Shown here in pieces: positions 14,965 through 60,873 of a stretch of DNA of 64,000 nucleotides (its first letter is position 1; every line of letters starts with the position of its first letter). A program made the position numbers and the translations under genes. Source of the stretch: Clostridiales bacterium (GTDB lineage: Bacteria > Bacillota > Clostridia > Christensenellales > Aristaeellaceae). The notes under the pieces are model-generated. The model saw only the letters and a program-made list of their open reading frames with translations, was not told the DNA's origin and ran no database searches. The stretch is from positions 263-64,262 of the forward strand of contig SVGY01000014.1 of assembly GCA_015056145.1 (NCBI GenBank). Reading direction: 5' to 3'.

Positions 14965-15019
14965 CTCCTTTCACCAAGATAGTACAGGAAAATCTGTTTT
15001 GATTTCATCACAATAAGAA

Positions 15020-15051
15020 AAAAAGCATGCTCAATCGAGAATGCTTTTTTG
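15020..15051 (-). terminator. Rho-independent terminator
   Basis: AAAAAAGCAT ... ATGCTTTTTT hairpin immediately downstream of the stop at 15054. Confidence 0.65.
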
Positions 15052-15053
15052 GA

Positions 15054-15548: not shown

Positions 15549-15567
15549 GGATTACCTCTCAGGGGGA

Positions 15568-16482: not shown

Positions 16483-16516
16483 TCCTCCCTGCCAAGAATA
16501 TGCTTTTGTTTATGGG

Positions 16517-17959: not shown

Positions 17960-18223
17960 GATGTTGCGCCTCCGGAATGGCAAAATGGGGTAATAAGTGT
18001 TACATTCGTCAGGCAAGGCCCTGTTTCCTGCTTTTTTTCTGACTTTGCCCGCAGGAGGGAGAAATAAATTCGGTCTTGTGGTCTTTTGAGATTGTTGGTA
18101 TAATGTATTTTGGTATATGCATGCGAATGTAAGACCATCCTACCTATGAATAACCGTTGCAGGCCGCCGGATGCGGCGCACCTGCCTGTGAAATGAGCAA
18201 CCAAGGATAAGGAGTGCGGAAAC

Positions 18224-21200
18224 TTGAACGATTTCTATCGGAATCAGCCCGATCCCAACGAGTTCTACGGCGCACAGGACGATTACGCCCAGCAGGATCA
18301 GTGGAACCCTTCCGGATATCCGGAAGAATACGTTCCCGGCGGCTTTGCAGGCACCGGCCCCGTGGAGGAAGATCCCTTCTCTGCATGGCGCAGGCCTGCA
18401 GATACCGGCATTGACGGCGGATATCTGGGCGAGGAATCCCTGATGATGGGCGCAGAGATGCACAGTGCTGCCCAGCCCTTTTATCAGGCAGAGGCTGCCG
18501 CAGATTTTCGCAGCCAGGGCGATGCGCCCACCCGTGTGAGTCAGCCTGTACAGATGGTATCCAAGCGGGTATCTCAGCAGGCGGAACCCCAGGTATCTTA
18601 TGCACAGCCCGTTCAGGAGCAGCCTTATGCCGCTGCCCCCGCCGCCGCTGCACCGGCAGAGACCGCTCCGCAGGAGGCAGCAGCTCCCCGTCGCCGCAGC
18701 CGTCGTATGGAACGCCGGGAAGCTGCGGATGTGCCTCAGGCCGCACCTGTCAGCAATCAACCGGAGATGGGCTATGATCCTTATCAGGCTCCCCGTGAGC
18801 AGGCAGCGCCTGTTCAGCAGCCTGTCCGCCAGGAATATCCCCGCAGAAGCGCCCCTGCAAGCAGCCAGCCGGAGATGGGCTATGATCCCTATCAGGCATC
18901 CCGTGAGCAGGCTGCGCCCGTTCAGCGTCCCGCTGCCAGAGAGTATCCCCGCCGCAGCGCCCCCGTAAACGCTCAGCCAGAAAGGGACTACGATTCCTAC
19001 CAGGCTCCCCGTGAGCAGGCCATGCCCGTACCCCAGCCCGCTCATCAGGAGTATCCCCGCAGAAATATGGCCGTAAGCCGCATGCCCGAAAACGAGTACG
19101 ACGGTTACGACGCATATGATGCACCTGTGGCAGATCCCCGTTACGAAACCCCCGTGGAGGAGCCCCGTCAGGCGCCCCGCAGGGAATACCGTCAGGCTGC
19201 CCCCGGAGACAATTATTCCGGCCCCCGCACCGCTATGCCCACGCAGAACCGTGGCTCTGTTGCAGACCGTGCCCGGGAAGTGCGTGACGAAGTAAGGAAC
19301 GCTCCCCAGGAAGAGATGAACGCTGCTCAGCGCAGACCCATGCCCCCTCAGGGCGGCGAAGCGCCTCAGCGTCGGCCCATGCCTCAGCGGCCTGTGCCTC
19401 AGGGTCAGGCTCTTCAGGGCGGCATGCCTCAGCGCCGGCCCGTGCCTCAGGGTGAAATGCCCTACGGCCAGGAAGAACAGCAGGGTTACGGTCAGGAGCA
19501 ATACGGCTATGGTCGTCGTCCCAGCCCCTATAACCGTGGCGAAAACGACCGCAGCGCATCCGTAAACCGCAAACCCTACGATTTTGAAAACGACGATCAG
19601 GATGAGGAACCCCGCCGCGGCAGCGTATTGCTGGCTATCGTCATTGTACTGCTGGTCATCGGCGGCCTTCTGGCCGGTCTCTGCCTGCCTGACTGGGCAA
19701 GCATCGGCGGCCCCGTGGGCAATACCCTTGCCCCTGCCAAGGAGGCTGTGGTGAATACCTTCACTACCCTCAAAAATAAGATCAAGCCCGAAGAAGAGAT
19801 GATCCGCAGCTTCACTGCCAACTGCTCCGATGCAGAGGCGCCCGCCACGGTGAAGTTTTCCGTGCAGACGGCCAAGAATGTTGCCGGTATCCGCATTGTG
19901 GATGATAATAACAATGAGCTCTATTCCGCCCTCTACACCGACGAGATGGCCCTTTCCGGCGATGTGATGGTAAACAGCAACGCCCTTATCTGGATGCCCT
20001 CCTGCGTGATTGAGGAAGAATACACCGGTGGTTTCACCGTTTACGCCATTCGCAAGGACGGCAGCACCGACGAGGGCACCCCCACTGCCGAGCAGGTGAC
20101 CATCGCCCCCAAGGCAGAGGAAGCACTGCCCATGCAGGGCTTTACAACCAGCGCCGAAAGCGGCGAGATTCCTGCAGAAATCACCTTTACCGTGACCACC
20201 TCCGCTGACGTTTCCGCTGTGCGGGTGGTGGATCAGTACGAATCCCCTGTGGCTACCAGCAACATCGATGCAGCCACCCTGGACGGCACCATGACCCAGG
20301 ACGGCGACAAGCGCATCTGGACGCTCCGTGTTACGGTGGATAACATCTACAGCGGTACCTACCGTGCCCAGTATCAGGCTGCGGATGATCTCAATTTTGT
20401 CAGCAGCGAATACACGGTTCCCGCTTCCTTTATGCCCCCCGTTGCCACGGAAGTGCCGCCGGAGGAGACCCCCGTGCCCCTGAACGAGGGTGAAGAGGAC
20501 CCCGTCGCCACCGAAGAGCCCGAGGAAACCGCAACTCCCGAGCCTACGGCGACCCCCACCCCCGAACCTACCGCCACCCCGGAACCCACCCCCACGCCCA
20601 CTCCGGCCCCTGATGCTACCGCAATGCCGGAAGTGGATGCCGCAGCCGCCGGCAGCGCAGATCCTGCTGCGCTGAACCTGAAAACCGTTACCAACAATAA
20701 CGGCAAGAGCGCCAGCAACTTCAGCCGCAGTGGCGAAAAAGCCATTTCTATGGTGACTCCCTTCACCAGTAAGACATCCAGCGACAACTATGCTGTGTGG
20801 AAGCAGGCTGGTGTGCTTACCTTCCGCAGCGGCCCCATGCGTCAGAATGCTTCCTTCGGCACTGTTGAGGTGGAGGAAGGCAAGCTGAGCGTTCTGTGGA
20901 GCCAGCCCGTTGGTTCCATGAAGGCCAAGGAGAGTACCCTCTATGGTGTGGTGGCTCCCGGTCAGCCCCTGATCATCAAATGGCCTACCGAAATGCGTAC
21001 CGACTATCTGGGCCTGAAGGATGAAGCCCGCCAGGTTACTGCCCTGAAGGAAGTAATCATCTCCGGTCAGGACGGCAAGATTTATTTCTACAACCTGCTG
21101 GACGGCACTATGACCCGTGAACCCATTGATATCGGCGCTCCCAGCGCAGGCGGTCTTTCCCTTGCCACCAATGGCACCCCGGTGCTGGGCGTGGGCCAGA

Positions 21201-40359: not shown

Positions 40360-40462
40360 GATGCAAAAAGAAGATACCTTCCCCTCCGATGCATGGAATA
40401 CATATCTGACAGGGAAAAGTATCTGAGGAACGTCTATATTACCAACAAGGAGGAAACAAATT

Positions 40463-41005
40463 ATGAAACCTTTGAAGGGAACCAAAACGGAAGCCAACCT
40501 GATGTCCGCCTTTGCCGGTGAGAGCCAGGCACGCAACAAGTACACCTACTACGCCTCCAAAGCCCGCAAGGAAGGGTATGTGCAGATTGCCAACCTGTTT
40601 GAGGAAACCGCCAACAACGAAAAAGAGCACGCCAAAATCTGGTTCAAGCTGCTCCATGACGGCGATATCCCCACCACCGCCGTGAACCTTGAGGATGCTG
40701 CCGACGGCGAAAACTACGAGTGGACCGATATGTACGCCGGCATGGCCAAGGATGCCTGGGAAGAGGGCTTTGACGAGATCGCCGCTCTGTTTGAGGCTGT
40801 GGCAAAGATCGAAAAGAACCACGAAGAGCGCTACCGCAAGCTGCTCAAAAATGTGCAGGAAGGCATCGTGTTCAGCCGTGATGGCGACATGATCTGGGAA
40901 TGCTCCAACTGCGGCCACATCGTGATTGGCAAGAAAGCCCCCATGCTGTGCCCTGTGTGCAAGCATCCGCAGGCATACTTCATGATTAAGGCCCAGAACT
41001 ATTGA
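40463..41005 (+). CDS. rbr: rubrerythrin
   Basis: Diiron ferritin-like EX2H motifs ([15 protein letters not shown]) and a C-terminal rubredoxin-like CSNCG ... CPVC. Confidence 0.92.
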
Positions 41006-41018
41006 TCTGATGAAATCG

Positions 41019-41067
41019 GCCGTCGGGGCAGCAGGGGGATAACAGGCCCCTGCCATGCCCCGGCGGC
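41019..41067 (+). terminator. GC-rich imperfect hairpin downstream of rbr, without a T-tract
   Basis: GCCGTCGGGGCAGCAGGGGG / CCCCTGCCATGCCCCGGCGGC. Its function as a terminator is uncertain. Confidence 0.35.
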
Positions 41068-41101
41068 TGTTGCATATCGTGGAAATGCGGAGGATGAAAA
41101 G

Positions 41102-42805
41102 GTGCGGGTTGCGCTTATCAATGTAACGGCTTCCGGTGGAACGGGCAAATTCTGCGTGGAGCTGAGCAGGCAGACCATGGAAAGGGGCCATACGGTCCTG
41201 TTTTGTCATGCCCGAAGCCACTGCCCGGGGGATGTGCCGTCCTGCCGGGTGTGCTGGTACAGCGGCGCTTTTGCATTTGTGAAAAGGATTCTCGGCAGCG
41301 GATGGAAGTATATTTCCCGTTTTTTTGGCAGCCTGTGGCGCTATGCCGGGCTGAAATTCGGAAAAACCGGCAGAAAAAAAGCTGCGGAGAAAGGCGAGGC
41401 GGATCTGAAAAACGCCGTTCTTCCCCGCACAGAAGCCCTCCGCAGTGATCTCCCATCCCGGAAACGTCGTGGACGATCGGGCAGGCTGCCTGGCGGCCTG
41501 CGGGTACGGAGCCGTCACAAGCCGGATATAAGAACCCGGATCCAGGACGCAAAAAGAGGGATGGACAAAGGAAAAGTGAAGATGAAGCGGGCCATCCATC
41601 CCCGGACGGAGTTTTTCCGCAGCAATATTAACACTTACACTCATGGGGTCAGGGCAAGGCTTACGGACAGGCAGGGTTTTTTCAGCAAGCAGGCCACCCG
41701 GCGGCTGGTGGAACAGCTCAGAAGTTTTCAGCCCGATGTGATTCATCTGAATAATCTTCACGGATATTATCTGCATATGCCTACACTTTTTTTGTACCTG
41801 CGGGAGGAACAGATACCCGTGGTGTGGACGTTGCATGACCTGTGGGCGGTGACCGGGCACTGCGCCTTCCCCTCTACTGCTGTGGAACCCTTCCTGACGG
41901 ATGCCCAGGAGCAGATGTACCTCAGCTGCGCCGGCGACGCCGCCCGGGAGGCCGAGGTGGATAAGCAGATTTGCCGGGAAGGTTGCCTGCGCTGGCAAAC
42001 CGGCTGCGGGCACTGCGTCATGAAAGGGGAATATCCCAGAAGCTGGTTCCGGGATCAGAGCGCACGGAACTGGCGTGAAAAGCGGGCGCTGTTTTCCGGG
42101 CATCCCTATATGGTGCTTACGGTTCCCTCCCGGTGGATGGAGCAGCAGGTAAGGAAATCTTTTCTTTCCGGATATCCGCTGCACTATATGCCCCACGGGC
42201 TGGATATGAACGCCTACCGGCCCTGCGTGAATGTGGACGAACGCATTGCGCTTCTCAAACGGCTGAAATTGTGGGAAATGCGCTCCAAATATCTGCTGGT
42301 GAGCGTGGCCAGCCTCTGGGAAAGCAGGAAGGGGCTGGAGGATCTGATGGATCTGAAGGAACTCCTGGGAGAAGATTACTGCGTGGTGGCTGTCGGCCTT
42401 GACGAGGATCAGCGGGCAGCCATTCCGGACGGCTCCGTCATTGCCCTGGAGGAAATGGGCAACAGGGCGGACCTGTGCGCCCTGTACACGGCGGCGGACC
42501 TGTTTGTGAGCCTGAGCCGGGCGGAAAGCATGGGTATGCGGCCGCTTCAGGCCATGGCCTGCGGCACGCAGGTGCTCTGCTGGGATGCGACCGCCATGCC
42601 GGAGCTGATTACCAATGACGTTGGCCTGACGGCGGAGCTGGGCAACCTGCAGGACGCTGCGGACAAGGTGCGCTGGTTGTGCGAAAACCCGGCTTCTCCG
42701 GAAGATTGCCGCAGAAGGGCCATGGAATATGAAGCCGGACACAGAAACCGGCAGTTTGTGTACCTTTACGAGGGGATGCATGAAAACGGCCCTGCCGCAT
42801 CCTGA
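41102..42805 (+). CDS. glycosyltransferase (GT4-like) with a ~125-aa Arg/Lys-rich insertion
   Basis: GTG start with a GGAGGA SD. N-terminus VALINVTASGGTGKF. Core motifs PDVIHLNNLHGYY and WTLHDLWAVTGHCAF. The C-terminal half is GT-B-like. Confidence 0.78.
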   Translation: MRVALINVTASGGTGKFCVELSRQTMERGHTVLFCHARSHCPGDVPSCRVCWYSGAFAFVKRILGSGWKYISRFFGSLWRYAGLKFGKTGRKKAAEKGEADLKNAVLPRTEALRSDLPSRKRRGRSGRLPGGLRVRSRHKPDIRTRIQDAKRGMDKGKVKMKRAIHPRTEFFRSNINTYTHGVRARLTDRQGFFSKQATRRLVEQLRSFQPDVIHLNNLHGYYLHMPTLFLYLREEQIPVVWTLHDLWAVTGHCAFPSTAVEPFLTDAQEQMYLSCAGDAAREAEVDKQICREGCLRWQTGCGHCVMKGEYPRSWFRDQSARNWREKRALFSGHPYMVLTVPSRWMEQQVRKSFLSGYPLHYMPHGLDMNAYRPCVNVDERIALLKRLKLWEMRSKYLLVSVASLWESRKGLEDLMDLKELLGEDYCVVAVGLDEDQRAAIPDGSVIALEEMGNRADLCALYTAADLFVSLSRAESMGMRPLQAMACGTQVLCWDATAMPELITNDVGLTAELGNLQDAADKVRWLCENPASPEDCRRRAMEYEAGHRNRQFVYLYEGMHENGPAAS

Positions 42806-42848
42806 TTGGGCCATCAGGAAATATGTTTTGGAAAGGAGAGCGCATTTC

Positions 42849-44900
42849 ATGAAAAAACTGAAATGGCTTTGCCTCATTCTGGCGCTGATGATGTGCCTTT
42901 CCGGCTGTGAGAAACTGAACATTCAGGGGCAGCAGACCGCTACGGCACCCTCGCTGCAGCTTCTGAACATGCCGCCCTATGAGGATGAGGAGGCAGCCTC
43001 TGTGGGCTCTGCCGACGAAGAGGGCAATATGCTGGTGGATCTCTGGATGGATGGCTCGCAGCTTATGGGCGGCATCAACGAGGATCCCACCAGCCTCTAT
43101 CCCCAGACAGGACTTCGTTACCGTCAGGGCGGTTTTCATTACCGGCTTGGCGGAGAGGTGGGCTGGTATGAGGATGTGCTGGGCTGCTTTTTGGAAGCGG
43201 CGGGCGATTCCCGTGTGCGGGTGCTGCGTACCGGCAACGAGCGCATCCCGGACAGTCTGATCACCAGCTATGGCTTCACTGGCACCGAGGAGGAAATGCG
43301 CTCCTATCGGCGGGATCTGATGACCTATGCCATCGATCCCATGCCCAGCATATTTTCCGGGTTTTCTTCGGAAAGTATGGAAAACAGCTTTTATTCCCTG
43401 GGCACGCCCCAGATGAACCAGATGGCCCGCTTTATGGGAAATGGCGGCGCAGATTTGGAAAACCCCGGTAGAACAGAAGAAATGAACGCCCTGCTTACGG
43501 AGTTTGTGGAGGGCTTCCATCAGAAGAACGTACCGCCCCCTGCACAATGGCATGCGGTGGGCAACGACCAGGACAGCCCGCTTTTGTACGCCCTCAGGAA
43601 TCTGGATGTTACAAGGCTTTCTGTTGTTACCTGCGACCCTGCCACCCTCCGCAGGCTTCAGGGCACCCGGGTGGATGGTTCGCCGGTATACTATGTGGAA
43701 GAAATCCTGCGGGAAAGAAAGGCCTTTGATAACGGCATGAGCGTGGGGTTGTATGCTATGCAGCTGGACTATATGGGTCATATGGTCAGTTTCGGTCCGG
43801 CGGATTTTTCGGATTCCCTGATCTGGGGCAAACCGGACTATAACAGCAACACACGGAAAATCAACGGCGTTTTGCCGATGCCCCGGACACTGCTGGTGCT
43901 TGTTATCGGCAGGCCGGAGCAGGTGGAAAGTTATACCGCCGCCCTGAACGCCCAGCTGAATGGAAACCGCAGCCTTTCACAGATGCGTGGCCCGGACGAC
44001 GGCCAGCTCACCTATACTGCCAACAGCCAGACGGTGGTGCAGCAGCCCTTCTATTTTGAATATGAATATACCGGGGTAAAACGCCCGTCGCTGGGATACT
44101 ACACCCATCATACCGCTGGCGCAAAGCTGGAAACCCGCAGCGGCCTTGCCTCCCAGCAGAAGGATGGCCTTGAAATGCTTACCCTTGGCGGAAATGTGGA
44201 CGAAACGCTGGTCTATTCCTGGCCTGCAGAGCAGCTTCCGGACGGCCTGCAGCTGGATCTTTCCACCCTGTCCGGCGCAAGGGTTGAGGTGATTGATTCC
44301 CTGCTGCTTACGCAGATCGTGCCCAACGGCCCGGAAGCCGCTATGGGGGAAAACACGCAGGTGCTCACCCTGCGGGATAAACTGTATTGCTTTGAAAGGG
44401 TGGAATCACCTTTTGAGGGCAAAGAGAAGCAATGCCCCTTTCAACTGGAATCCATCGCCTGGAGCGAGGATGGTTCCCGGCTGGAGGTTCGGGTGAAGGT
44501 GGATCACACCCTGCTGAAAAGCGGGTATTACCGGCTTAAACTGGTGGCGGACGTGACCGGCGAACAGCTGGAATGGCCACTGGTCAGCTGGGCGCAGGAC
44601 GGTACCGGCCTCAGTGTGGAAATATCCAACAGCGAGGTCATTGCATGGGAAAACCTGATGCAGACCCTGACCCGTTACGGTCGTTCCCGCAACTCTATCC
44701 CCACTACTTTCCGGCATGCCTGGGGCAGCTATACGGGCAAGGATTATCAGGGCGTGGAAGTGCCCGATTTTCCGCAGGTGTACAAGGCCCCTGGACTTCA
44801 GCGGCTTTTGGAGCAGATCCGCTCGGCAGCCAACCTGGAAACCGCCCCGCTGATCCGTTGTACCTTTGATGTATTTGTGCCGGAGATCATTGCGCCCTGA
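42849..44900 (+). CDS. lipoprotein of unknown function, first gene of the tubulin-like/actin-like operon
   Basis: ORF 42729..44900 trimmed to ATG 42849 (GGAGAG SD). Signal peptide MKKLKWLCLILALMMCLSGC with lipobox LSGC (Cys codon 42906-42908). Confidence 0.8.
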   Translation: MKKLKWLCLILALMMCLSGCEKLNIQGQQTATAPSLQLLNMPPYEDEEAASVGSADEEGNMLVDLWMDGSQLMGGINEDPTSLYPQTGLRYRQGGFHYRLGGEVGWYEDVLGCFLEAAGDSRVRVLRTGNERIPDSLITSYGFTGTEEEMRSYRRDLMTYAIDPMPSIFSGFSSESMENSFYSLGTPQMNQMARFMGNGGADLENPGRTEEMNALLTEFVEGFHQKNVPPPAQWHAVGNDQDSPLLYALRNLDVTRLSVVTCDPATLRRLQGTRVDGSPVYYVEEILRERKAFDNGMSVGLYAMQLDYMGHMVSFGPADFSDSLIWGKPDYNSNTRKINGVLPMPRTLLVLVIGRPEQVESYTAALNAQLNGNRSLSQMRGPDDGQLTYTANSQTVVQQPFYFEYEYTGVKRPSLGYYTHHTAGAKLETRSGLASQQKDGLEMLTLGGNVDETLVYSWPAEQLPDGLQLDLSTLSGARVEVIDSLLLTQIVPNGPEAAMGENTQVLTLRDKLYCFERVESPFEGKEKQCPFQLESIAWSEDGSRLEVRVKVDHTLLKSGYYRLKLVADVTGEQLEWPLVSWAQDGTGLSVEISNSEVIAWENLMQTLTRYGRSRNSIPTTFRHAWGSYTGKDYQGVEVPDFPQVYKAPGLQRLLEQIRSAANLETAPLIRCTFDVFVPEIIAP

Positions 44901-44924
44901 CGAAACCGCCAAGGAGATGAAAGG

Positions 44925-45581
44925 ATGCAGACCGCTGTAATCACCCCCACGAAGAAGAAAAAGCGTACCCGCATGAGGTACTCCAACCGCTTCAAGGTGC
45001 TTTTGTGCTACCTGGTCAGCTTTGCGTTGCCGCCCCTCTGGCAGTTGGGCAGCCTTTTGCTGATCTATCCCTACCAGCTGAAAAACAGCGCACCGCTGAT
45101 CGCAGAAAATCTGTCTGGCGTTTTTCCTTTTCTGAAAAATATGCTGGAACCATATGTACAGCGGGCTGCTGAACCGGCTGGCGGCCAGTTTTCCGCAGAA
45201 ATGTGGAACCAGGTGCAGCAAAGCAGGGAGAAACAATGGATGCTGTTTTTGCTGGTTCTTTTTGCAGCAGGCTTTGTGCTTACGCTGCTTTTGCAGCTGA
45301 TATGGCGCTGGAGTCATACCCGGGGACTGCAGGGCGCAAAGGCAGTAAATCGTGCCGTGGCCCATTACCGGCTGAGCATGCTGGTGATCCTCCTCATCAA
45401 CGCTGCGCTGGCGGTGGCGGTGTGGCTTTTGGGCGTGCAGTTCATTGCTGGCCGGGGGCTTTGGGATTATCTGACCTATTTCGGCGCTTATGGGCTCAAT
45501 GTTATCGCTGCATTTGTCTGCTTCCGGCTGGCAGCTCCGCCGGCGATCAGCGGCAAAAAGGCGTTCTTTAAACGATTGTAA
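44925..45581 (+). CDS. predicted 4-TM membrane protein of unknown function
   Basis: AAGGAG SD 8 nt upstream. Basic N-terminus (KKKKRTRMR) followed by four hydrophobic segments. Confidence 0.7.
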   Translation: MQTAVITPTKKKKRTRMRYSNRFKVLLCYLVSFALPPLWQLGSLLLIYPYQLKNSAPLIAENLSGVFPFLKNMLEPYVQRAAEPAGGQFSAEMWNQVQQSREKQWMLFLLVLFAAGFVLTLLLQLIWRWSHTRGLQGAKAVNRAVAHYRLSMLVILLINAALAVAVWLLGVQFIAGRGLWDYLTYFGAYGLNVIAAFVCFRLAAPPAISGKKAFFKRL

Positions 45582-45596
45582 GAAGGGAGGGCTTCC

Positions 45597-47714
45597 ATGA
45601 GCTGCTATGTTCTGGCCGTGGGCGGAACCGGCAATAAAATACTGGAAAGCCTTGTCTATTGTGCCGCCATTGACGGTTTTTACACGGTGGATGAGGAAGG
45701 GGCCCGCAGCCCCATCCCCGAGATCCGCATGCTTTCCGTCGATGTGGACAGCGCTTGCGGCAACACAACCCGTGCCAAGCGTGCGGCGGAATATTATGAG
45801 GATATCCGGCAGGCCTACGAGAAGTATCCTGCCCGTCATCCGGGATTCCATACGGCGGTGCTGGCCAGCCGCTGGAATATGAACCTGTCCAAAAGGGCCA
45901 TGTCTGTGGACAAAATGGTGGAAGGCCATCGCAGGGATAAATTGCTCAGCCGAACCATTTTCAGCCGGACGGAATCCTCCCTTGAGTACAGCGAGGGCTT
46001 CCGGGGTCATCCCGACCTTGGTGTACTGTTTTTTTCCGATGTGCTCAATTCTCTGGAACGGCTTCGGGCAGAGGGCCAGCCTGACGAAATGAACGACCTG
46101 CTGGACCGCATCACCGATGAAATGAAGCGGGGAGAAAAAGTGAAGCTGATCCTTTGCGGCAGCATCTTCGGCGGTACAGGCGCATCGGGCATTCCCGCCA
46201 TCGCCAGGTTTCTCAGGGAGTATTTCAGGGACAACAGCCCCCTGTTTGAAATGGCAGCCATGCTGATGCTGCCTTACTACAAGGTTCCGCCATCCTCCCA
46301 GAATGAAGAGATGGAGATCGTGGTGAAGAGCTCCACCTTCCTGGACAAGGCACGCACGGCCCTGCAGTATTACGGTATGGAGGGCATGATACGCTCCGGC
46401 GAAAACGACGAAAAGGGCATCTTTGATGCGCTGTACATGCTGGGCCTGCCTACGGAGGCATTCATCACTACCCGCATCTATTCCACCGGTTCCCAGAGCC
46501 AGGAAAACGACGCACATATGCTGGAATGGCTGGCTACCAGGTGTATATCCCATTTCTTCCGCACCGGCTTCCGGGGCAAGGATGCCCACCACATCGACTG
46601 CTACTATTACCAGTGGCACACGCCTCAGCTGTGCTGGCAGAGCTTTGATCAGGAGGAGGAACTGTACCGCAATGGCTATACCAGCCTCCTGAAGGCGGCG
46701 GCGCTGTTTTTTGCGGAGCTGTACCCCTCTTTGCTGGGCTGTGCCAACGGACACAGAAAGAGCTGTACCCGCATCGGTTACTGCGCACCTTTCTTTTCCA
46801 CATTCCATAAAAAAACCAGCGCGGAGCAGGCAGAACTGGAGAATCTGCTCCAATCGCTGTATCATTTCCTGAATTTCTATTCCAACTGGATGATTCAAGT
46901 GGTGCGCACCATTCCCCCCACCATGAGGGAAAAGCGCATCAGCGAAAACTTGCGCACGGAGGCCGCAGAGAATTATGACCAGCTGGTAAAACGCCGGGCG
47001 CTGCTTACCCAGCGGGAGGAACACAAAGAAGAATCCCGGGCCTGGCAGGAAGAAACCAAGACCTTGCGCAAGGAATACGAGGATATGCAGCAGACCCGCA
47101 GCCAGCTTGCAAAGAAAATCGGCGGATATGCATGGCTGTCTGTGCTGAAGGACGCACAGGACAGCGCCCGGGAAAAGCTGTACCGTCAGGAAGAAAGCAT
47201 TGCAGAGGCAGAAGCCTCCCTGGAACGCATGAACGGCGAAGATGCAGGGCTGGTGGATGCCCAGATGATACGCCAGCAGACGGAACGGCTGGAAACCATG
47301 CGCCGTGCGGCTGTCACCATGGAACTGTGCCGGGAGCAGATCAGCCTGGATATTGAAGCTGCTATCCGGGAAAACGTGGTGCAGCGGGCTCCGGAACAGG
47401 CGGCACAGGATGAGGATGCATTGTCCCGCAACGGCCTGATGGACGCAGCTTTGCTGGAAAAACTCTATCTGTTGCTGAATCAGTACGGCCTGAAACCGGC
47501 CCAGCGCAGCAGCCAGGTTTTTGACGCTGCTGCCATAGAGCTGCAAAAAGGCCTGAACAAAATGAGCATTCAGCGTGTTCCCGACAGGATGGATACCACC
47601 CGGGTTATTGCGGGCCTTGGCGGAGGAACCCTTCGTGGCAGCGGCGCAGAAGGAGCTCTTTGCTCCTTCCTGACAACACTGCTCAGAGCCGTAGGAGAGG
47701 AGGAAGGCCAGTGA
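45597..47714 (+). CDS. tubulin/FtsZ-like GTPase domain protein with C-terminal coiled coil
   Basis: GGGAGG SD. T1-like VGGTGNK (45618-45638), T3-like GFRGHPDLG (45996-46022) and T4 signature GGTGASG (46170-46190). Charged heptad-like region at roughly 47000-47400. Confidence 0.7.
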   Translation: MSCYVLAVGGTGNKILESLVYCAAIDGFYTVDEEGARSPIPEIRMLSVDVDSACGNTTRAKRAAEYYEDIRQAYEKYPARHPGFHTAVLASRWNMNLSKRAMSVDKMVEGHRRDKLLSRTIFSRTESSLEYSEGFRGHPDLGVLFFSDVLNSLERLRAEGQPDEMNDLLDRITDEMKRGEKVKLILCGSIFGGTGASGIPAIARFLREYFRDNSPLFEMAAMLMLPYYKVPPSSQNEEMEIVVKSSTFLDKARTALQYYGMEGMIRSGENDEKGIFDALYMLGLPTEAFITTRIYSTGSQSQENDAHMLEWLATRCISHFFRTGFRGKDAHHIDCYYYQWHTPQLCWQSFDQEEELYRNGYTSLLKAAALFFAELYPSLLGCANGHRKSCTRIGYCAPFFSTFHKKTSAEQAELENLLQSLYHFLNFYSNWMIQVVRTIPPTMREKRISENLRTEAAENYDQLVKRRALLTQREEHKEESRAWQEETKTLRKEYEDMQQTRSQLAKKIGGYAWLSVLKDAQDSAREKLYRQEESIAEAEASLERMNGEDAGLVDAQMIRQQTERLETMRRAAVTMELCREQISLDIEAAIRENVVQRAPEQAAQDEDALSRNGLMDAALLEKLYLLLNQYGLKPAQRSSQVFDAAAIELQKGLNKMSIQRVPDRMDTTRVIAGLGGGTLRGSGAEGALCSFLTTLLRAVGEEEGQ

Positions 47715-50700
47715 AGGAACCGAAAAACAAGCGCCGTATTACCGAGGCAGATAAGGAAATGCTGGATAAGGAAACCCCGTATCTGACCCTGCTGCCTGAT
47801 ATGGACGAGGGCCTGAACATCGGCTACAAGCCTACTCCCGGTATTCAGAGCGACGGCAACCAGAAGCCCATGGAGTGGCTGGATCAGTTTGCCAAATTCA
47901 TCAAAACCCAAGGCGAGGACGTGGGATATTCCATTCCCGATGTGCTGGCCAGCGAACAGCAGCTGCGCCGTCTGGCCCGGCTTCCGGGAGATATTGCCCT
48001 GCGCCATCAGGAAATGGTGGATTACAGGGCGGTGCTTGCTCTGCTCCTTTTGTGGGAAAGCATAGCCGCTGACCCTTCCTGTGCCACGCTGACCATAGAG
48101 CCCATGCTGGAAATGGCGGACGAGGGCAGCTTTATTCACGCCGTTAGCGGCGCACTGCCTGAAAGCCGTGTGCGGGAAGGGTTGTATGTGTTTGCACTTT
48201 CCCGCCCCAAATCTGAAACCCCTGAAAAAACGCCCATCTGCCTGCTTTCCCGCAGTATGGTGCTGATGCCTGCGGCCAACTTGGGGGATCTGAGCAACCT
48301 TCTGCCGCCCTCTGTGGGCTGGTATGACCGCAACCGCAAGCGTTTTACCGACCCCTGCCCCTGGCTGGACGAGGAAATGTGCGCAGTGCTTATCCCCCGG
48401 CTGAGGCTGCTGAAAAGCCTCAACGAAGAGATTGCCTCCAGCTACATCTATTCTCAGGAGGCACAGCTGTGCTCGCTTATCGACCGCTTTATCCGGGATA
48501 TTCTTGCGGGAAGGGAAACCTGGCGGCAAGCCGTCAGAACCGGTGATGAAGAGGCTGCACGGGAACTGCGCACCCGCATTCTGACCATATACGGCCTGGC
48601 AGAGCGGGATCAGCGGTTGCAACTGAATATGTACACCTATCCTGCGGATGCATCCGATGCAGGCAGTAATGTGCTCATGGGTCAATTGATCCATCCGGAG
48701 GAGCCTGCGCCGAAACTGGATGCAGGTGAGGATACGGTGCTCTACACAATGGATGGCGTACCCTTCGCCCGGTTCTCTGCATCTTTCCTGATGGAGCCTT
48801 CCCGTGCCTTTGGCGAGAAGGAGGCGCTTCGCCGTGCAGAGGAAGAGATTGCCCTGCTGGATCAGTATGATGAAGACTGGCGGGCCAATATGGCCAGCAC
48901 ATTGCTGGAACTGTACCAGGACACCCAGGGCAGAACCGGTGTGGATCCGGCGGTTCCGGAGCTCTTGCTGGCGTGGAGCCGGGAATATGCGGCTGCCCCC
49001 CGTTATGGCGACAGCGATATTTTGCTGCGTTATCCGGAGGAAACTTCATCACGCACTCTGTCCCCCTTGCTGGAAAAGCTGTTTGGCCAGGGGGCCGAGG
49101 ATTGCATCCGGGAGCCCTTTTCCGATTGCCTCCTGATGGTGGAAAATGCGGAAACCTGCCCGCTTCCCGGGTGGATGGAGCCTTATTGCAGGCTCCGGGA
49201 TGTGCCCGGAGACCACAGGGTGTATTTTGTGCCGCCCATTTCCAGAGGAATGGCCGCATGGCTTGCCCGCAATGGCGAAAGTAACGATCCTTCCCTGCCC
49301 AGACTGCTGCCGGAAAGCCTGTCCTGCAGGCTTCTGGCAGATCAGCAGCACATTGAAGCAAGCTTTTCCGTTGGTACCCGCAGCGCCAATCAGCAGGGCG
49401 TGCTGGGAAAAGTGAGCTTTGTTCGTACCTACGACCTGCGGGCTCTGCCGGAGGTGGGCGCAGCGGTGACTCTTGCTGCATCTGCTCTGCCCTCGGTTAC
49501 GGTATGGCCCAACATCCGTCTTTCTTCCCAACAGTGGAAGCAGTATTTTGTGCACACCCACGGTGCACATACGCTGGAAGCCTTCACTCTGGACGGTGAT
49601 CAGTGGAAGCGGGGCATTATGCGTTCGGCTCAGGGCTATGACCGGGAGGAAATGAGCCGCCGCAGCTGGCATACTGCCAGAACCACCACCTTCCCGGCCT
49701 ATGTGGCCCTGTGCCGTGGTTCGCTGTGCTTTGGTATGCTGGTGAATGATCTTTCCTGCACACAGCTGCGCTATGAGCAGCCCGCCATCATCAGTGTGGA
49801 CTTTGGCTCCATTGCCACCACCGTGATGATGCGCCAGGGCGACAAGGTTCAGCCGGCCTCCCTGCCAGCCAGCCTGCACGGTGTGCTTCTTTCGGCCACG
49901 GAGGGGCTGGAGGATATCCTCATGGAGGAATTCATCCCCCGCAACGCCCTCACCCCCGGCAGCCCCAGCGAAAGCACCTACTACAGCGTGGTGGACCTTT
50001 TCGGAGAAGGCCCGGCGGATTGGAAAAACGTGCTGGAGGATGGCCATATTTTCTATCCGGAAAGCATGACGGCCTTGATGCGCAAGGATTCCAACACCCT
50101 TTACTACGACCTGAAGTGGAGCGATGAGGAATATGTGCTCAGGTGCCTGAGGCTGTTCCTGAAGCAGATGATGCTGCAGGCATCGCTGGCAGCACGGCTC
50201 TGGGGGTCCGAAAGCCTCAGCTGGCGTGTAAGCGTGCCCGGTGCCCTGCCGCCCCACCGGCAGGAGGCTTATCTGGACATGATGCGTGGCCTTGCCAAGG
50301 AAGTGGCCAAGGAAACGGGCATGCCCCTCAGCAGCGGCTGCCCTGCGGTACTCTATGCGCTGGAAAATCAGGCGGACGGCCTGTACTTCCGTCACCGCAA
50401 CGAGGTGAACGCAGGCAGCGGATACCTGAATCTGGACGTGGGCGGCAGTACCGCCGACCTGAGCCTGTGGCTCCGGGGAGGCAGTCACGCCACGGCGGAA
50501 TGTTCACTGCTGCTGGGTTGCAGGCGGATTCTGTATGCATCCGTGTCCGAAGGGCATATAGAAGATTTTCACCGGGATTTCCTCCGGGGCGACAGCGCTA
50601 TGGTCGGCGCCGCAGCGGGTCTGGTGGAGGAAATGCGCAGCGCAGGCAGCGCCACCCGGGCGCAACAGAAATGCATGCTCCTCATGGACGATTTCTTTGC

Positions 50701-51373
50701 CAGCTACGCAAAACCCATCCGCAAATGCCTTGCGGAATTCCGCTCCCAGGGCCAGATTACCTATACGGAATCGTTGCTGCTGTTCAACTTCGGCTTCCTG
50801 TTCCGGCTTTGCGGCCTGATGCTGCAGCGTTCCTATGAGGATAAGGAACTGCGGGCAAAGCTGCCTCAGCGGGTGGAATTGTGCATTGCCGGCAATGGCG
50901 GTCAGCTTCTGAAAATGTTCTCCCGGGAGCAGATGGAGCGGCTGTGTGGCCTTGCCCTGACCCTTCTGTGCAACCAGCATCCCGTAACGGTGCTGATGCC
51001 GGTGCAGAGCGTTGATCCCAAGCAGGAGGTGGCCCTTGGCCTGCTTCACAGCGAGGGCGATCTGCAAAGTACCCTGCACAGCGTGGAGCGCTGGAATGGT
51101 ACCCTTCTTAGCGAAGACGGCAGAAGCCTCCACGGAGAGGATTCCTTTATGGCGGATTTCCTCCGGGAGTTTGTGCAGGCGTTCCCCCAGGCGGCCAACC
51201 GCATCCTTGGCAACGCCCTGGAAATGGATGACCTTGGGGAAGTGCATCTTGCAGAAGGAGCGCTGATGGAGCTGGAAAACATTCTGGCCAACGAAAACGC
51301 AAAAACGCCCGAAGACAATTTTGGTACCTACATCCGCTGCTTTGCTGCCATGAAGCGGCTTTGGAGGGTGTAA
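47711..51373 (+). CDS. giant protein with C-terminal actin/Hsp70-like (ASKHA) ATPase domain
   Basis: GTG 47711 overlaps the upstream TGA (GTGA), with SD GGAGAGGAGGAAGG. Motifs occur in order: ISVDFGSIATT (49790-49822), ALENQADG (50357-50380), DVGGSTAD (50435-50458), IAGNGGQ (50885-50905). Confidence 0.65.
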   Translation: MKEPKNKRRITEADKEMLDKETPYLTLLPDMDEGLNIGYKPTPGIQSDGNQKPMEWLDQFAKFIKTQGEDVGYSIPDVLASEQQLRRLARLPGDIALRHQEMVDYRAVLALLLLWESIAADPSCATLTIEPMLEMADEGSFIHAVSGALPESRVREGLYVFALSRPKSETPEKTPICLLSRSMVLMPAANLGDLSNLLPPSVGWYDRNRKRFTDPCPWLDEEMCAVLIPRLRLLKSLNEEIASSYIYSQEAQLCSLIDRFIRDILAGRETWRQAVRTGDEEAARELRTRILTIYGLAERDQRLQLNMYTYPADASDAGSNVLMGQLIHPEEPAPKLDAGEDTVLYTMDGVPFARFSASFLMEPSRAFGEKEALRRAEEEIALLDQYDEDWRANMASTLLELYQDTQGRTGVDPAVPELLLAWSREYAAAPRYGDSDILLRYPEETSSRTLSPLLEKLFGQGAEDCIREPFSDCLLMVENAETCPLPGWMEPYCRLRDVPGDHRVYFVPPISRGMAAWLARNGESNDPSLPRLLPESLSCRLLADQQHIEASFSVGTRSANQQGVLGKVSFVRTYDLRALPEVGAAVTLAASALPSVTVWPNIRLSSQQWKQYFVHTHGAHTLEAFTLDGDQWKRGIMRSAQGYDREEMSRRSWHTARTTTFPAYVALCRGSLCFGMLVNDLSCTQLRYEQPAIISVDFGSIATTVMMRQGDKVQPASLPASLHGVLLSATEGLEDILMEEFIPRNALTPGSPSESTYYSVVDLFGEGPADWKNVLEDGHIFYPESMTALMRKDSNTLYYDLKWSDEEYVLRCLRLFLKQMMLQASLAARLWGSESLSWRVSVPGALPPHRQEAYLDMMRGLAKEVAKETGMPLSSGCPAVLYALENQADGLYFRHRNEVNAGSGYLNLDVGGSTADLSLWLRGGSHATAECSLLLGCRRILYASVSEGHIEDFHRDFLRGDSAMVGAAAGLVEEMRSAGSATRAQQKCMLLMDDFFASYAKPIRKCLAEFRSQGQITYTESLLLFNFGFLFRLCGLMLQRSYEDKELRAKLPQRVELCIAGNGGQLLKMFSREQMERLCGLALTLLCNQHPVTVLMPVQSVDPKQEVALGLLHSEGDLQSTLHSVERWNGTLLSEDGRSLHGEDSFMADFLREFVQAFPQAANRILGNALEMDDLGEVHLAEGALMELENILANENAKTPEDNFGTYIRCFAAMKRLWRV

Positions 51374-51390: not shown

Positions 51391-51431
51391 AGGACTGTTG
51401 CGAAGATTTGCTTTGCAACAGTCCTGTTTTT
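51391..51431. terminator. bidirectional Rho-independent terminator
   Basis: AGGACTGTTGCGAAG / CTTTGCAACAGTCCT stem followed by GTTTTT. A T-rich run is also present on the opposite strand. Confidence 0.8.
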
Positions 51432-53181: not shown

Positions 53182-54444
53182 TTATTCTTCAGGTTCCTCC
53201 ACGGGGATGGCGTTATCGCTGACGCCGACGCCAATAAGGGAGGTAACGGTACGCACGAAGGTCTTATCCTTCCACTTGGCCAGGTTGTTCAGCATCCGTC
53301 CACGGAAGATCAGCGCCATGGTATTGCCGCCATCCAGGTTGAAGCCTTCCACCACGCCTCTCTCCAGCATCAGCTGGGTAGGGAAACGCAGACCGGTGCC
53401 TTCGGAATTCTTGGTGCGGCCCTGAACAGAAACCAGCAGGTAATGGTTGGGTTCGATCATGCCAAGAAGCTGGCGGGGGGATTTGGTGTCATAATAGCCG
53501 GCAGGGATGTATTCGTCGATCTGGCCTTCGGAAATGACCACGGGCCCGAAACAGAATACATTCACGGCGCCCAGCGCCAGCAACTCTTCAGAGGTGATGG
53601 TGCTGCTGCGGTAGCATTTGAGCGTGCCATCGGGGAACTGGGCCATCATGTCCAGATTGGGCAGGTTGTGGAGACGCTTGCGGTAGTCGTCATCGCAGAT
53701 GATCTCGCCATTGCGGATGACGATGCCTTCCTGCTCCTTGCGGTTGATGCGGTGGCCGTAGAAGTCGTCGGTAAAGCCGAGGACGTATTTGTTGTTGGTT
53801 GCGATATCGAAGGGGTAGGAAAAACGGGTGCCGGGACGGTCGGGGTTGGTTTCCGTGGTGAGGAACTGCTGTCCGTTGCGCATGAAGATTTCCGTTTCAA
53901 ACCACACCAGCGGCACGGAAGGACGCTCGTAGCGGTTGATAAGGATTTGCAGATCGCCGGAAAGATAGCACCACTGACCGCCTTCGTCATTTTCATAAAA
54001 ATACTCGGAACCGTCGGCAGTATAGCCGGCTTCGTCCAGCTCGGGCACATCGTCCGCCATCAGGGGGCGGGGAGTGGGCAGGGGTTCCGGCGTGGGTTCA
54101 GGGGTGGGGGTGGGCTCCACATAGGGCTGAGCCTGGTCGGAAAAGAGGAAGTCTTTGTCCGCTACGGTAATCACGCCGGTCACTTCCAGACCATTCTGCT
54201 CCTGAAAGGTTTTGACGGTGCGGGTCATGGCGGAGTTGAATTCCCGGTTGAGATTGGTGGTGTTGTAGTAGCCCAGCTCGTAAAGACGCTGCTTGATCTC
54301 TTTGATTTCGGCGTTTTTGTCGCCCTGTTTGTAGAGCACCTTATCGGGCGCAGGGGTCTCTTCAGCTTCCGCACAGGCGGCGCCCACGCAGGCAAGCAGG
54401 GAAAGAATCAGCACGAGAAGGGCAATCAGACGGAATTTTTTCAT
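53182..54444 (-). CDS. secreted peptidoglycan-binding domain protein with phosphodiester glycosidase (NAGPA-like) domain
   Basis: Signal peptide present. PG_binding_1-like segment (IKEIKQRLYELGYY ... TVKTFQEQNGLEVTGV). Pro/Thr/Glu linker. The C-terminal domain ends in FNLDGGNTMALIF. Confidence 0.65.
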   Translation of the reverse strand: MKKFRLIALLVLILSLLACVGAACAEAEETPAPDKVLYKQGDKNAEIKEIKQRLYELGYYNTTNLNREFNSAMTRTVKTFQEQNGLEVTGVITVADKDFLFSDQAQPYVEPTPTPEPTPEPLPTPRPLMADDVPELDEAGYTADGSEYFYENDEGGQWCYLSGDLQILINRYERPSVPLVWFETEIFMRNGQQFLTTETNPDRPGTRFSYPFDIATNNKYVLGFTDDFYGHRINRKEQEGIVIRNGEIICDDDYRKRLHNLPNLDMMAQFPDGTLKCYRSSTITSEELLALGAVNVFCFGPVVISEGQIDEYIPAGYYDTKSPRQLLGMIEPNHYLLVSVQGRTKNSEGTGLRFPTQLMLERGVVEGFNLDGGNTMALIFRGRMLNNLAKWKDKTFVRTVTSLIGVGVSDNAIPVEEPEE

Positions 54445-54447
54445 TTG

Positions 54448-56115
54448 TTAAATCTCCATAATGATAGGAAGAATCATGGGGTTGCGTTTGATCTTTTCAA
54501 AGATGTAGCGGTGCAGTTCATCCTTGACGCGGTTTTTCAGATTCTGCCACTCGCTGCCGTCCAGACGGCCGTATTCGGCCAGAATGGCACGGGTGAGCTC
54601 TCTGCTGGACTCGATGATGTCTTCGTTTTCACGCACATACACAAAGCCACGGCTGATGAGATCCGGGCCGGAAACCAGCACGCCGCTGTCCCGTTCGATG
54701 GCCATGACCACGATGATAAGGCCGTCCTGGCTCAGATGCTTGCGGTCCCGGAGAACCACGTTTCCAACATCGCCGATACCAAGACCGTCCACCAGCACGC
54801 CGCCGGTGGGCACAACGCCGGCGATGCTCAGACTGTTCTGGGACATTTCGATGACGTTGCCGATTTCGGGGATGATGATATTGTTGCTGGCAACGCCCAG
54901 CTGCTCGGCCAGCTCCGCATGCTGCCACAGCTTGGCATATTCGCCGTGGATGGGGATGAAGTACTTTTCCTTGCACAGGGCGTGCAGCAGCTTGATTTCC
55001 TCCTGGCAGGCGTGGCCGGAAACGTGCACCTCACCCAGCTGGCCGTAGATCACGTTGACGCCGCAGCGGTACAGCTGGTTGATAACACGGGAAACAGGCT
55101 TTTCGTTGCCGGGAATGGGGGAGGCGGAGATGATGACGGTATCGGTGGGGCGGATCTGCAGCTTGCGGTGTTCGCCGTAGGCCATACGGGTCAGACCGGC
55201 CATGGCTTCGCCCTGGCTTCCGGTGGTCACCACCAGCACCTCGTCATCGGGGTAGTTGTCCAGATCGTCCACGTCGATGATGTTTTCATCGGGGATGCAC
55301 AATTCGCCGATGGTCATGGCCACCCGGGTGACGTTGACCATGCTGCGGCCGATAAAGCAAACCTTGCGTCCGTACATGGCAGCGGAATCCACCACCATCT
55401 GTACACGGTGGATGTTGGAGGCGAACATGGCCACGATCACACGGCCCTTGGCCTGCTGGAACATATCGATGAAGGTCTGGCCGATTTTGGTTTCGCTCAT
55501 GGTGTGGCCTTTGCGCTCGATGTTGGTGGACTCGCAAAGGAAAGCCAGTACGCCCTCATTGCCAAGCATGGCAAAGCTGGCCAGGTCGGTTACCTCGCCG
55601 TCGATGGGGGTGTAGTCCACCTTGAAGTCGCCGCTGAAGACGATGGTGCCCGCAGGGCAGGTGATGGCGATGGCCACGGCGCCGGCGATGGAGTGATTGA
55701 CATGGATGAACTTGATGTGGAAGCAGCCCAGGTTGATTTCATCCCGGGGATGGATCACATTGAGGGGGATGCCGGCGATGCGGTGCTCCTTCAGCTTCAG
55801 GTCCACCAGCGCCAGGGTCAGCTTGGTGCCGTAAAGGGGCATGGGTACCTGGCGCAGCACATAGGGCGTTGCGCCGATATGGTCCTCATGGCCGTGGGTA
55901 AGCAGCATACCACGCAGCTTTTCTCTGTTTTTAATAAGATATGTTACATCCGGGATGACCAGGTCCACGCCCAGCATGTCTTCCTTGGGGAAGATGGAAC
56001 CGCAGTCCACCACCAGAATATCATCGCCGTATTCCACGACGGTGATGTTTTTGCCAAATTCGTCTACGCCGCCCAGCGGGATGATGCGGAGTTTGGGTTC
56101 GTTGTTTTGCACCAT
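54448..56115 (-). CDS. rnj: ribonuclease J
   Basis: Trimmed to MVQNNEPKLRIIPLGG (AAGGAGG SD). Metallo-beta-lactamase motif HGHEDHIG plus a beta-CASP region. Confidence 0.92.
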   Translation of the reverse strand: MVQNNEPKLRIIPLGGVDEFGKNITVVEYGDDILVVDCGSIFPKEDMLGVDLVIPDVTYLIKNREKLRGMLLTHGHEDHIGATPYVLRQVPMPLYGTKLTLALVDLKLKEHRIAGIPLNVIHPRDEINLGCFHIKFIHVNHSIAGAVAIAITCPAGTIVFSGDFKVDYTPIDGEVTDLASFAMLGNEGVLAFLCESTNIERKGHTMSETKIGQTFIDMFQQAKGRVIVAMFASNIHRVQMVVDSAAMYGRKVCFIGRSMVNVTRVAMTIGELCIPDENIIDVDDLDNYPDDEVLVVTTGSQGEAMAGLTRMAYGEHRKLQIRPTDTVIISASPIPGNEKPVSRVINQLYRCGVNVIYGQLGEVHVSGHACQEEIKLLHALCKEKYFIPIHGEYAKLWQHAELAEQLGVASNNIIIPEIGNVIEMSQNSLSIAGVVPTGGVLVDGLGIGDVGNVVLRDRKHLSQDGLIIVVMAIERDSGVLVSGPDLISRGFVYVRENEDIIESSRELTRAILAEYGRLDGSEWQNLKNRVKDELHRYIFEKIKRNPMILPIIMEI

Positions 56116-56317
56116 GGCGACCTCCTTATGGGGGATATAAGATTCTGTAGCAGCCCTCACCACTGCAAAGCAGTAATAAGCGACTGAAGGAACTCGGTAA
56201 TCAATGGCCTGCACAAAAGATAAAGTAAACATGCAGTACAGCAAAAGCTGTACGCAAAAGAACTTTGAATGGATTTGTACGTCTGGCATAAAGCCAACGG
56301 CCCAAAGATACTACAAT

Positions 56318-56950: not shown

Positions 56951-57111
56951 ATAAAATTGCATCAGTATCGGAACTGTGCGCATTTTAGCCAAAAGCCTGA
57001 GGGTATTGTACATGCCCCGGCAAAAAAAAGCAACAGAAAAATGTTGCAGGGCTGAAGTGCTTGTAAAATAAGGATCCGACGCATGCGAGAACATAAGGGG
57101 TGATGGCATTT

Positions 57112-60873
<3,762 letters not shown>

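Follow-up and report, generated by a model that had tools for sequence, protein, structure and literature searches.

The stretch of DNA analyzed here, hereafter the window, comprises 64,000 nucleotides (nt) from a Clostridiales bacterium (Christensenellales, Aristaeellaceae; GenBank assembly GCA_015056145.1, contig SVGY01000014.1, positions 263 to 64,262 of the forward strand). One of its operons ends in a gene for a protein of 1220 amino acids (aa), which we call the giant protein, and this gene directly follows that of a tubulin-like GTPase of the FtsZl1 type. An earlier reading of the letters, made without database searches (the sequence-only reading), had described a ~690-residue N-terminal region of no assignable kind fused to an Hsp70/actin-like ATPase core, and had proposed that the protein is an ATPase partner of the tubulin-like protein. 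We describe evidence that the core is predicted to adopt an Hsp70-like ASKHA fold and that the two proteins form a conserved pair. The two genes and the signals around them are as follows.

45597-47714, plus strand: tubulin-like FtsZl1/PF13809 (Tubulin_2) GTPase, 705 aa; Pfam score 29.9 bits against a cut-off of 27

47693-47707, with overlap extending to 47714, plus strand: Shine-Dalgarno-like purine-rich run AGGAGAGGAGGAAGG and GTGA overlap, read from the sequence and recurring as NTGA in orthologous loci (counted below)

47711-51373, plus strand: gene for the 1220-aa giant protein, GTG start and TGA stop; open reading frame (ORF) and translation, 75 full-length homologues (32-90% identity), conserved M1

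51391-51425, plus strand: intrinsic terminator at the end of the operon, beginning 18 nt past the stop codon of the giant gene; 15-bp stem with 7 GC pairs, followed by a T run

The reading frame of the giant protein runs for 1237 codons without a stop (47660-51373, plus strand). Its GTG at 47711 lies 3-10 nt 3′ of the Shine-Dalgarno-like run and overlaps the TGA (47712-47714) of the tubulin-like gene, as the sequence-only reading had described. Met1 aligns with the starts of homologues and is at least 90% conserved in an alignment of 44 sequences. The same reading had contrasted fragmented antisense ORFs with a frame that stays open for 3.66 kb; fragmented they are in relative terms, but they still reach 268-479 aa. 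Elsewhere in the window, ORFs of 827-1123 aa with no Pfam match (44406-47546, 40439-42922 and 56962-60333 on the minus strand and 53443-56187 on the plus strand) run opposite genes of the operon, rpoB, and the genes for RNase J and a NAGPA/PG_binding protein. One, of 1046 aa, lies opposite three real genes, another, of 1123 aa, opposite rpoB, and a third, of 914 aa, is rich in G, A, V, D and H. These long antisense ORFs look like artefacts of codon usage. Since such ORFs without a family match occur across the window, ORF length is weak evidence of coding in this genome. We considered whether the frame of the giant protein could be a noncoding artefact as well and rejected this, as it is conserved over its full length across homologues. 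Judged by these sequence comparisons, the gene is real and coding, and conservation, not ORF length, carries the case.

From its N to its C terminus, the giant protein is laid out as follows.

47711-47938, plus strand: residues 1-76, conserved segment with many invariant or near-invariant residues and a low-confidence model (predicted local distance difference test, pLDDT, 43-60)

47939-49000, plus strand: residues 77-430, α/β plus helical domain, here called N1; BLASTP matches to the fusion proteins P0076-80 at E = 1e-26 to 1e-38; AlphaFold2 pLDDT mostly 85-98

49001-49780, plus strand: residues 431-690, small α/β unit and β-rich domain leading into the ATPase core (AlphaFold2 secondary structure)

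49781-51010, plus strand: residues 691-1100, predicted Hsp70-like ASKHA nucleotide-binding domain (NBD), from the AlphaFold2 model and Foldseek, with weak Pfam and PDB profile matches

49784-49825, plus strand: phosphate-1 motif AIISVDFGSIATTV (D697, G699, T703), invariant in 44 homologues; D or E at position 697, and likewise G699, in 113 of 114 wide-family representatives

50423-50470, plus strand: phosphate-2 motif YLNLDVGGSTADLSLW (D909, G911, G912, T914), conserved and aligning to the DxGGG motif of Ppx and FtsA

50873-50920, plus strand: adenosine motif VELCIAGNGGQLLKMF (G1061, G1063), invariant, following a β-strand of lobe II in the model

51011-51370, plus strand: residues 1101-1220, C-terminal helical bundle; helices at model residues 507-578, pLDDT 88-96

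We modeled residues 640-1220 with AlphaFold2 on an alignment of homologues and compared the model with the PDB using Foldseek, a check that the sequence-only reading had suggested for the ATPase core and, separately, for the N-terminal region. The model (mean pLDDT 85; predicted template modeling score, pTM, 0.86) gave 654 matches at E ≤ 1e-3, and the top 50 were Hsp70 NBDs throughout (mortalin, BiP, Hsc70, DnaK; E = 4.8e-9 to 6e-8, probability 1.00). The predicted structure has the two-lobed ASKHA topology: its secondary-structure elements follow the order of two β-β-β-α-β-α-β-α lobes, with the motifs in the expected places. In model numbering, lobe I comprises strands 53-76, helix 168-191, strand 197-203, helix 209-230, strand 241-245 and helix 246-255, and lobe II comprises strands 265-294, helices, strand 415-421, helix 433-445, strand 455-460 and helix 467-474. 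By our mapping, the first hairpin would contain D697, and the helix that follows strand 5 would have E885 at its start. In lobe II, D909 would sit within the first hairpin, G1061/G1063 would come after strand 4, and PKQEVALG would belong to the last helix. An Hsp70-like ASKHA fold in the C-terminal half of the giant protein is thus well supported as a structural prediction, and the match list agrees with the earlier view that the core is closer to Hsp70 than to MreB or ParM. The domain would presumably bind and hydrolyze ATP.

The motifs that define this core are strongly conserved. The peptides quoted in the sequence-only reading occur where it had placed them, at about residues 697, 909 and 1058, and their spacings (~212 and ~150 aa) are as it had claimed. 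Across 44 homologues of 32-75% identity, D697/F698/G699/T703, D909/G911/G912 and C1058/A1060/G1061/G1063 are invariant. The DxG, DxGG.T and G.G motifs of ASKHA proteins are likewise found in the 114 wide-family representatives, in which position 697 is D in 106 and E in 7, and G699 (113/114), D909 (111/114), G911 (112/114), G1061 (113/114) and G1063 (106/114) are nearly always kept. These residues are retained in every class of the family, including a fused class whose tubulin-like part has lost its GTP motifs.

Like the NBD of DnaK and other Hsp70s, the giant protein has the five classical motifs in order (phosphate 1, connect 1, phosphate 2, adenosine, connect 2) within a predicted two-lobed fold, and their Hsp70-like spacing implies IB- and IIB-type insertions. 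It differs from Hsp70 in being only 12-14% identical to the top 50 structural matches, in lacking the interdomain linker and in carrying a 690-aa N-terminal region without a known fold and a helical C-terminal bundle. The nearest structural neighbors being Hsp70 NBDs, the protein could be a specialized Hsp70-type chaperone that folds or holds clients. However, the Hsp70 substrate-binding domain (β-sandwich plus helical lid) is absent, with only a helical bundle of ~120 aa following the NBD in the model; Pfam HSP70 (PF00012) matches neither the giant protein nor any of 39 homologues at E ≤ 10; and no DnaJ or GrpE gene lies in any gene neighborhood that we inspected. We regard a chaperone of this kind as very improbable.

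Profile comparisons by sequence gave little beyond the motifs. With hhalign, DnaK and Hsc70 NBDs aligned over 22 residues, confined to the phosphate-1 motif (E = 2.3e-4), and global alignment of the ASKHA region to the same sequences failed. A Rubisco match in the PDB sequence search (E = 0.011) was set aside as spurious. The only recurrent Pfam hints, both sub-threshold, were to EutA and Ppx-GppA (each in 5 of 39 members; best E = 0.008 and 0.012), and the weak PDB profile matches at the DxGG motif, also sub-threshold, were to the exopolyphosphatase Ppx, the best of them (E = 0.38), and to FtsA (E = 2).

These hints raise the possibility that the ASKHA domain is no switch but a small-molecule or sugar enzyme (kinase, phosphatase of the Ppx/GppA type or reactivase of the EutA/DdrA type) that feeds or regulates the neighboring glycan pathway, with the tubulin-like protein serving as a scaffold, and sugar-nucleotide and glycosyltransferase genes do adjoin the giant gene. 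However, the structural neighbors are uniformly Hsp70 NBDs, with no kinases or phosphatases among them, the sequence matches are confined to the universal DxGG motif, and operons in distant phyla lack glycan genes (below). We consider an enzyme of this kind quite unlikely. We assign a similarly low probability to a filament-forming actin-like protein of the ParM, MreB or MamK type, which would make a second polymer beside the tubulin-like one. The predicted ASKHA fold and the weak FtsA match would be consistent with such a protein, as would automated labels in a distant branch of the family, in which NCBI gives one member the name cell division protein FtsA and a precomputed MreB_Mbl (PF06723) assignment is attached to two. 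Nevertheless, the top 50 fold matches are Hsp70s rather than MreB, ParM, FtsA or actin, and a filament would have to accommodate N- and C-terminal appendages of 690 and 120 aa.

The giant protein has no predicted membrane helix, and no model in Pfam, NCBIfam or PADLOC matches it. Residues 1-660 gave a model (pLDDT 83.8, pTM 0.74) that is confident except for residues 1-76, yet Foldseek found no significant fold match for it in the PDB (best E = 0.45) or BFVD (best E = 0.06); the C-terminal helical bundle (residues 1101-1220) has no Pfam match. The statement that the first ~690 and last ~130 residues resemble nothing recognizable therefore stands. Residues 1-76, which show the pattern YLTLLP.MDEG...PGI.SD.NQKP.EWL, are missing from the 1050-1110-aa and fused classes of the family; they may be a linear interaction motif or a peptide that folds upon binding a partner. 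N1 is the portion of the giant protein that is found fused to tubulin-like domains, and distant family members share, besides the ATPase core, the region from profile position ~450-560 onward.

In the tubulin-like protein, a GTPase domain (residues ~1-446), in which the GGTGNK and GSIFGGTGASG motifs are invariant, is joined by a variable linker of coiled-coil-like character to a C-terminal tail that is conserved. The linker and tail together span approximately residues 450-705; the linker is charged and is missing from the 541-aa orthologue at locus L008, and the layout recalls the linker and FtsA-binding C-terminal peptide of FtsZ. Profile searches of the tubulin-like family, and of the family of a lipoprotein encoded in the same operon, against PDB sequences returned nothing meaningful.

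To what extent do the two genes travel together? Taking one genome per GTDB species gave 50 loci, in which neighboring genes were counted by tblastn; every one of them is from an uncultured member of the Clostridia, labeled Candidatus Limiplasma, Christensenellaceae or the like. Immediately upstream of the giant gene, 47 have the tubulin-like gene, and the contigs of the other three end before the upstream DNA. Start and stop codons overlap as NTGA in 35 of the 47, where ~5% would be expected at that exact codon, although the count is biased because the start nearest the stop was chosen.

Two independent gene fusions also join the tubulin-like protein to the giant protein or its N1 domain. The first is represented by ~900-aa proteins (P0076-80) of the same lineage, whose N-terminal part is homologous to residues 1-446 of the tubulin-like protein (E = 1e-58 to 1e-68) and whose C-terminal part is homologous to residues 76-427 of the giant protein (E = 1e-26 to 1e-38); the genes stand alone after dapF and an aminotransferase gene. 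This paralogue class, with tubulin-like and N1 parts and no ASKHA part, was seen directly behind those two genes on Limiplasma-type contigs at L003 (10001-12709), L004 (10001-12694) and L005 (1769-4462); there may thus be another form of the system, lacking the ATPase, near genes for diaminopimelate and peptidoglycan precursors. The second fusion comprises 24 proteins of ~1550-1770 aa, in which a tubulin-like domain is joined to nearly all of the giant protein and in most of which the match to the giant protein begins near residue 630-850. By hhalign (probability 99, E = 3.7e-18), their N-terminal 400 residues are a homologue of the tubulin-like domain in which the GTP-binding motifs are lost. 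In one Clostridial lineage, a split form (a 646-aa tubulin-like protein, HMM E = 7.6e-39, plus a protein of 1100 aa) and a fused form of 1729 aa occupy the same syntenic site, both with Bac_transf, NTP_transferase and epimerase genes upstream and a SpoU methylase gene downstream.

The association extends well beyond Clostridia. A full-library profile search, with representatives defined as clusters at 50% identity, placed at least 1184 representatives in the giant family at E ≤ 1e-3 (785 at E ≤ 1e-10 and 221 at E ≤ 1e-30). A distant branch of ~1000-1300-aa proteins, which match from profile position ~450-560 onward, is found in Poribacteria, Thermodesulfovibrionales (Nitrospirota) and Pyrinomonadaceae (Acidobacteriota). 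At three distant loci (L059 and two others, one of them on a Thermodesulfovibrionales contig), the giant gene again directly follows a Tubulin_2 gene, in the order ~250-450-aa protein, 154-155-aa membrane protein, Tubulin_2, giant protein; the first of these proteins has a lipobox-like N terminus at two of the three. At L064 (13301-18552) and L065 (13436-18395), four more conserved genes follow the giant gene. The third encodes an OmpA domain at both loci, and the second shows a faint MotA_ExbB match at L065 only, so it is possible that diderm versions include a stator-like module driven by proton-motive force. Neither OmpA locus carries glycan genes. Small hidden Markov models did not suffice to show homology between the lipoprotein and membrane protein of the window and their positional equivalents in the distant phyla.

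The giant protein is thus encoded in FtsZl1/Tubulin_2 operons in the window, at the surveyed loci and at the distant loci. With conserved adjacency, the start/stop overlap and two independent fusions, its partnership with the tubulin-like GTPase, as the sequence-only reading had proposed, is well supported.

Three further genes precede this pair in the window.

41102-42805, plus strand: GT4-family glycosyltransferase (Pfam Glycos_transf_1, Glyco_transf_4), which opens the cluster in many genomes; present at 30 of 50 loci

42849-44900, plus strand: extracytoplasmic lipoprotein of ~683 aa with signal/lipobox MKKLKWLCLILALMMCLSGC (LSGC) and no Pfam match; 46 of 50 loci

44925-45581, plus strand: 218-aa polytopic membrane protein with 3-4 hydrophobic segments; 45 of 50 loci

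The GT4 protein is 567 aa long in the window, compared with 439-447 aa for the orthologues at L001 and L008. As listed, the lipoprotein ORF (from 42729) overlaps the end of the GT4 gene, and the real start is probably Met41 (42849). Near its N terminus, the lipoprotein has a hydrophobic strand followed by D-x-[ST]-x-x-M-G-G (VDLWMDGSQLMGG in the window, 42849-44900), and similar motifs occur at L059 (6407-7777, IDSTVSMEGF) and L065 (6576-7916, LDATTSMEGF). This motif resembles the metal ion-dependent adhesion site (MIDAS) of vWA domains; however, an hhalign comparison with a vWA protein was insignificant (E = 0.0039, probability 8.5%), and a vWA domain in the lipoprotein was not substantiated. 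Pfam finds no vWA domain in the window, and the only true vWA gene is at L007. This locus, the most divergent of the Limiplasma type (16079-19648, 13869-16028), also has genes for a subtilase, for a secreted vWA protein and for another Tubulin_2 protein, of canonical type (1190 aa, E = 7e-54), and it links the module to classical FtsZl1-vWA neighborhoods.

In Clostridia, the giant gene is adjoined by genes for GT4, Bac_transf, NTP_transferase and epimerase proteins and a Wzx-like flippase. The order birA, rubrerythrin and then the cluster is common to the window and to a genome whose orthologue is 47% identical; such stable synteny argues for a housekeeping role. A role in plasmid partition of the TubZ/ParM kind was rejected: the locus is chromosomal, near rpoB, the RNase J gene and birA, and has no DNA-binding partner.

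How does this operon relate to those already described? Makarova and Koonin (2010; PMC2875224) predicted that FtsZl1 operons are membrane-remodeling systems and listed as partners vWA proteins, which are present in the majority of the described operons, protein kinases, a P-loop GTPase and OmpA, together with genes without recognizable domains. An Hsp70 partner is not mentioned, and among the mentions of actin examined in that paper, none concerns an operon partner. The tubulin-like protein of the window resembles the published ones in its PF13809/FtsZl1-type N-terminal GTPase, coiled coil and helical C terminus, and distant loci carry OmpA-family genes and one locus, L007, a vWA gene. The ASKHA partner and the fusions, in contrast, appear to be undescribed.

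FtsZl1/vWA neighborhoods have also been treated as conflict systems. Kaur et al. (2020; PMC7159879) described nucleoside triphosphate-dependent conflict systems in which tubulin homologues or HSP70-family proteins accompany a DO-GTPase and GAP1; in Firmicutes, coiled-coil tubulins and vWA proteins outside the cell are part of these systems. Among the papers we found, this is the only setting that discusses tubulin- and HSP70-family proteins in one bacterial operon class. The giant protein might therefore be part of an anti-phage or abortive-infection system in which its ATPase sets the threshold for effector assembly. The subtilase, secreted vWA protein and second Tubulin_2 of L007 would fit, as would a weak match of the window GT4 to GT4-conflict (E = 0.022). 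However, a published system shows either the tubulin or the HSP70 theme and never both, and its HSP70 is a canonical one accompanied by GrpE and DnaJ. No DO-GTPase, GAP1 or FNIII component was found at giant loci: no protein of the window operon or its orthologues has a Pfam match to the DO-GTPase or GAP1 families, and the genes neighboring the giant gene at L059, L064 and L065 encode no P-loop GTPase motif. PADLOC matched none of the operon proteins. Moreover, there are no variable effector genes, and, unlike in defense islands, gene order and chromosomal neighborhood stay constant between genomes only 47% identical. We give a role in conflict small weight and consider it unlikely.

We favor a reading in which the giant protein is probably a cytoplasmic, multidomain, ATP-driven partner subunit of the FtsZl1-type tubulin-like GTPase, associated with the envelope and comparable to FtsA with FtsZ. 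The N1 region would dock the giant protein onto the tubulin-like subunit or polymer. The Hsp70-like domain, by binding and hydrolyzing ATP, would act as a conformational switch. This switch would control how the tubulin-like protein assembles, turns over or engages the membrane, similar to the way in which the actin-fold protein FtsA works with FtsZ. Together with the polytopic membrane protein and the lipoprotein, the pair would act at the membrane in the assembly or remodeling of the envelope or surface glycans; this cellular function is suggested by the company that the genes keep.

FtsZ-FtsA appears to be the closest functional analogy, although not one of membership. In both cases, a gene for a tubulin-superfamily GTPase with a variable linker and a conserved C-terminal tail adjoins a gene for an ASKHA-fold protein, in association with membrane or envelope genes. 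Here, however, the tubulin-like gene comes first, and the giant protein is ~3 times larger than FtsA, is Hsp70-like and has no predicted membrane helix. The tubulin-like protein, being of the FtsZl1 type, lacks the FtsZ C-terminal domain, and a role in division is not indicated.

Several points weigh against the reading that we favor. The Foldseek matches have modest TM-scores (0.31-0.36 when scaled to query length, 0.30-0.50 when scaled to the target) and a root-mean-square deviation of ~10-12 Å, and at the level of sequence the likeness to Hsp70 is limited to motifs. The candidate catalytic residues K802 and E885, which were assigned by eye without structural superposition, are kept in ~70% of the wide-family representatives. 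It is the fusions that suggest physical contact between N1 and the tubulin-like protein, and it is gene neighborhood that suggests an envelope-glycan role, with GT4 absent from 20 of the 50 loci. Finally, FtsZl1 proteins lack elements that FtsZ uses for filament contacts (PMC2875224), which makes polymerization uncertain.

We found no paper describing the pairing of an Hsp70-fold protein with an FtsZl1 tubulin-like protein. The ASKHA fold and FtsZl1 operons are already known; new with respect to the literature that we searched are the giant family, its architecture, its N-terminal folds and the fixed pairing and fusion with FtsZl1 proteins. Although FtsZl1 was predicted in 2010, the papers we found report no experiment on these tubulin-like proteins. 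The Clostridial members belong to Christensenellales/Limiplasma metagenome-assembled genomes from gut and digesters, for which our searches gave no literature on envelope biology. With the pairing, the GTPase ceases to be an orphan and becomes half of a defined module of two enzymes, in which an Hsp70-fold partner is constant, sometimes fused and encoded in envelope operons, and the nucleotide motifs of the partner outlast the decayed GTP motifs of the tubulin-like part. The ASKHA superfamily gains a large family for which Pfam has no model, and ~600 residues of confidently modeled folds have no match in the two libraries searched, the PDB and BFVD.

A broader view, which we offer tentatively and consider possible rather than probable, is that these proteins form an unrecognized and widespread machine of two NTPases: an FtsZ/FtsA-like pair that would have evolved apart from the divisome, be coupled to the envelope through the membrane protein and lipoprotein (in diderms, through OmpA-domain and possibly MotA/ExbB-like proteins), and position or power the assembly of surface glycans or the envelope, with the N-terminal 690 residues contributing new tubulin-binding folds.

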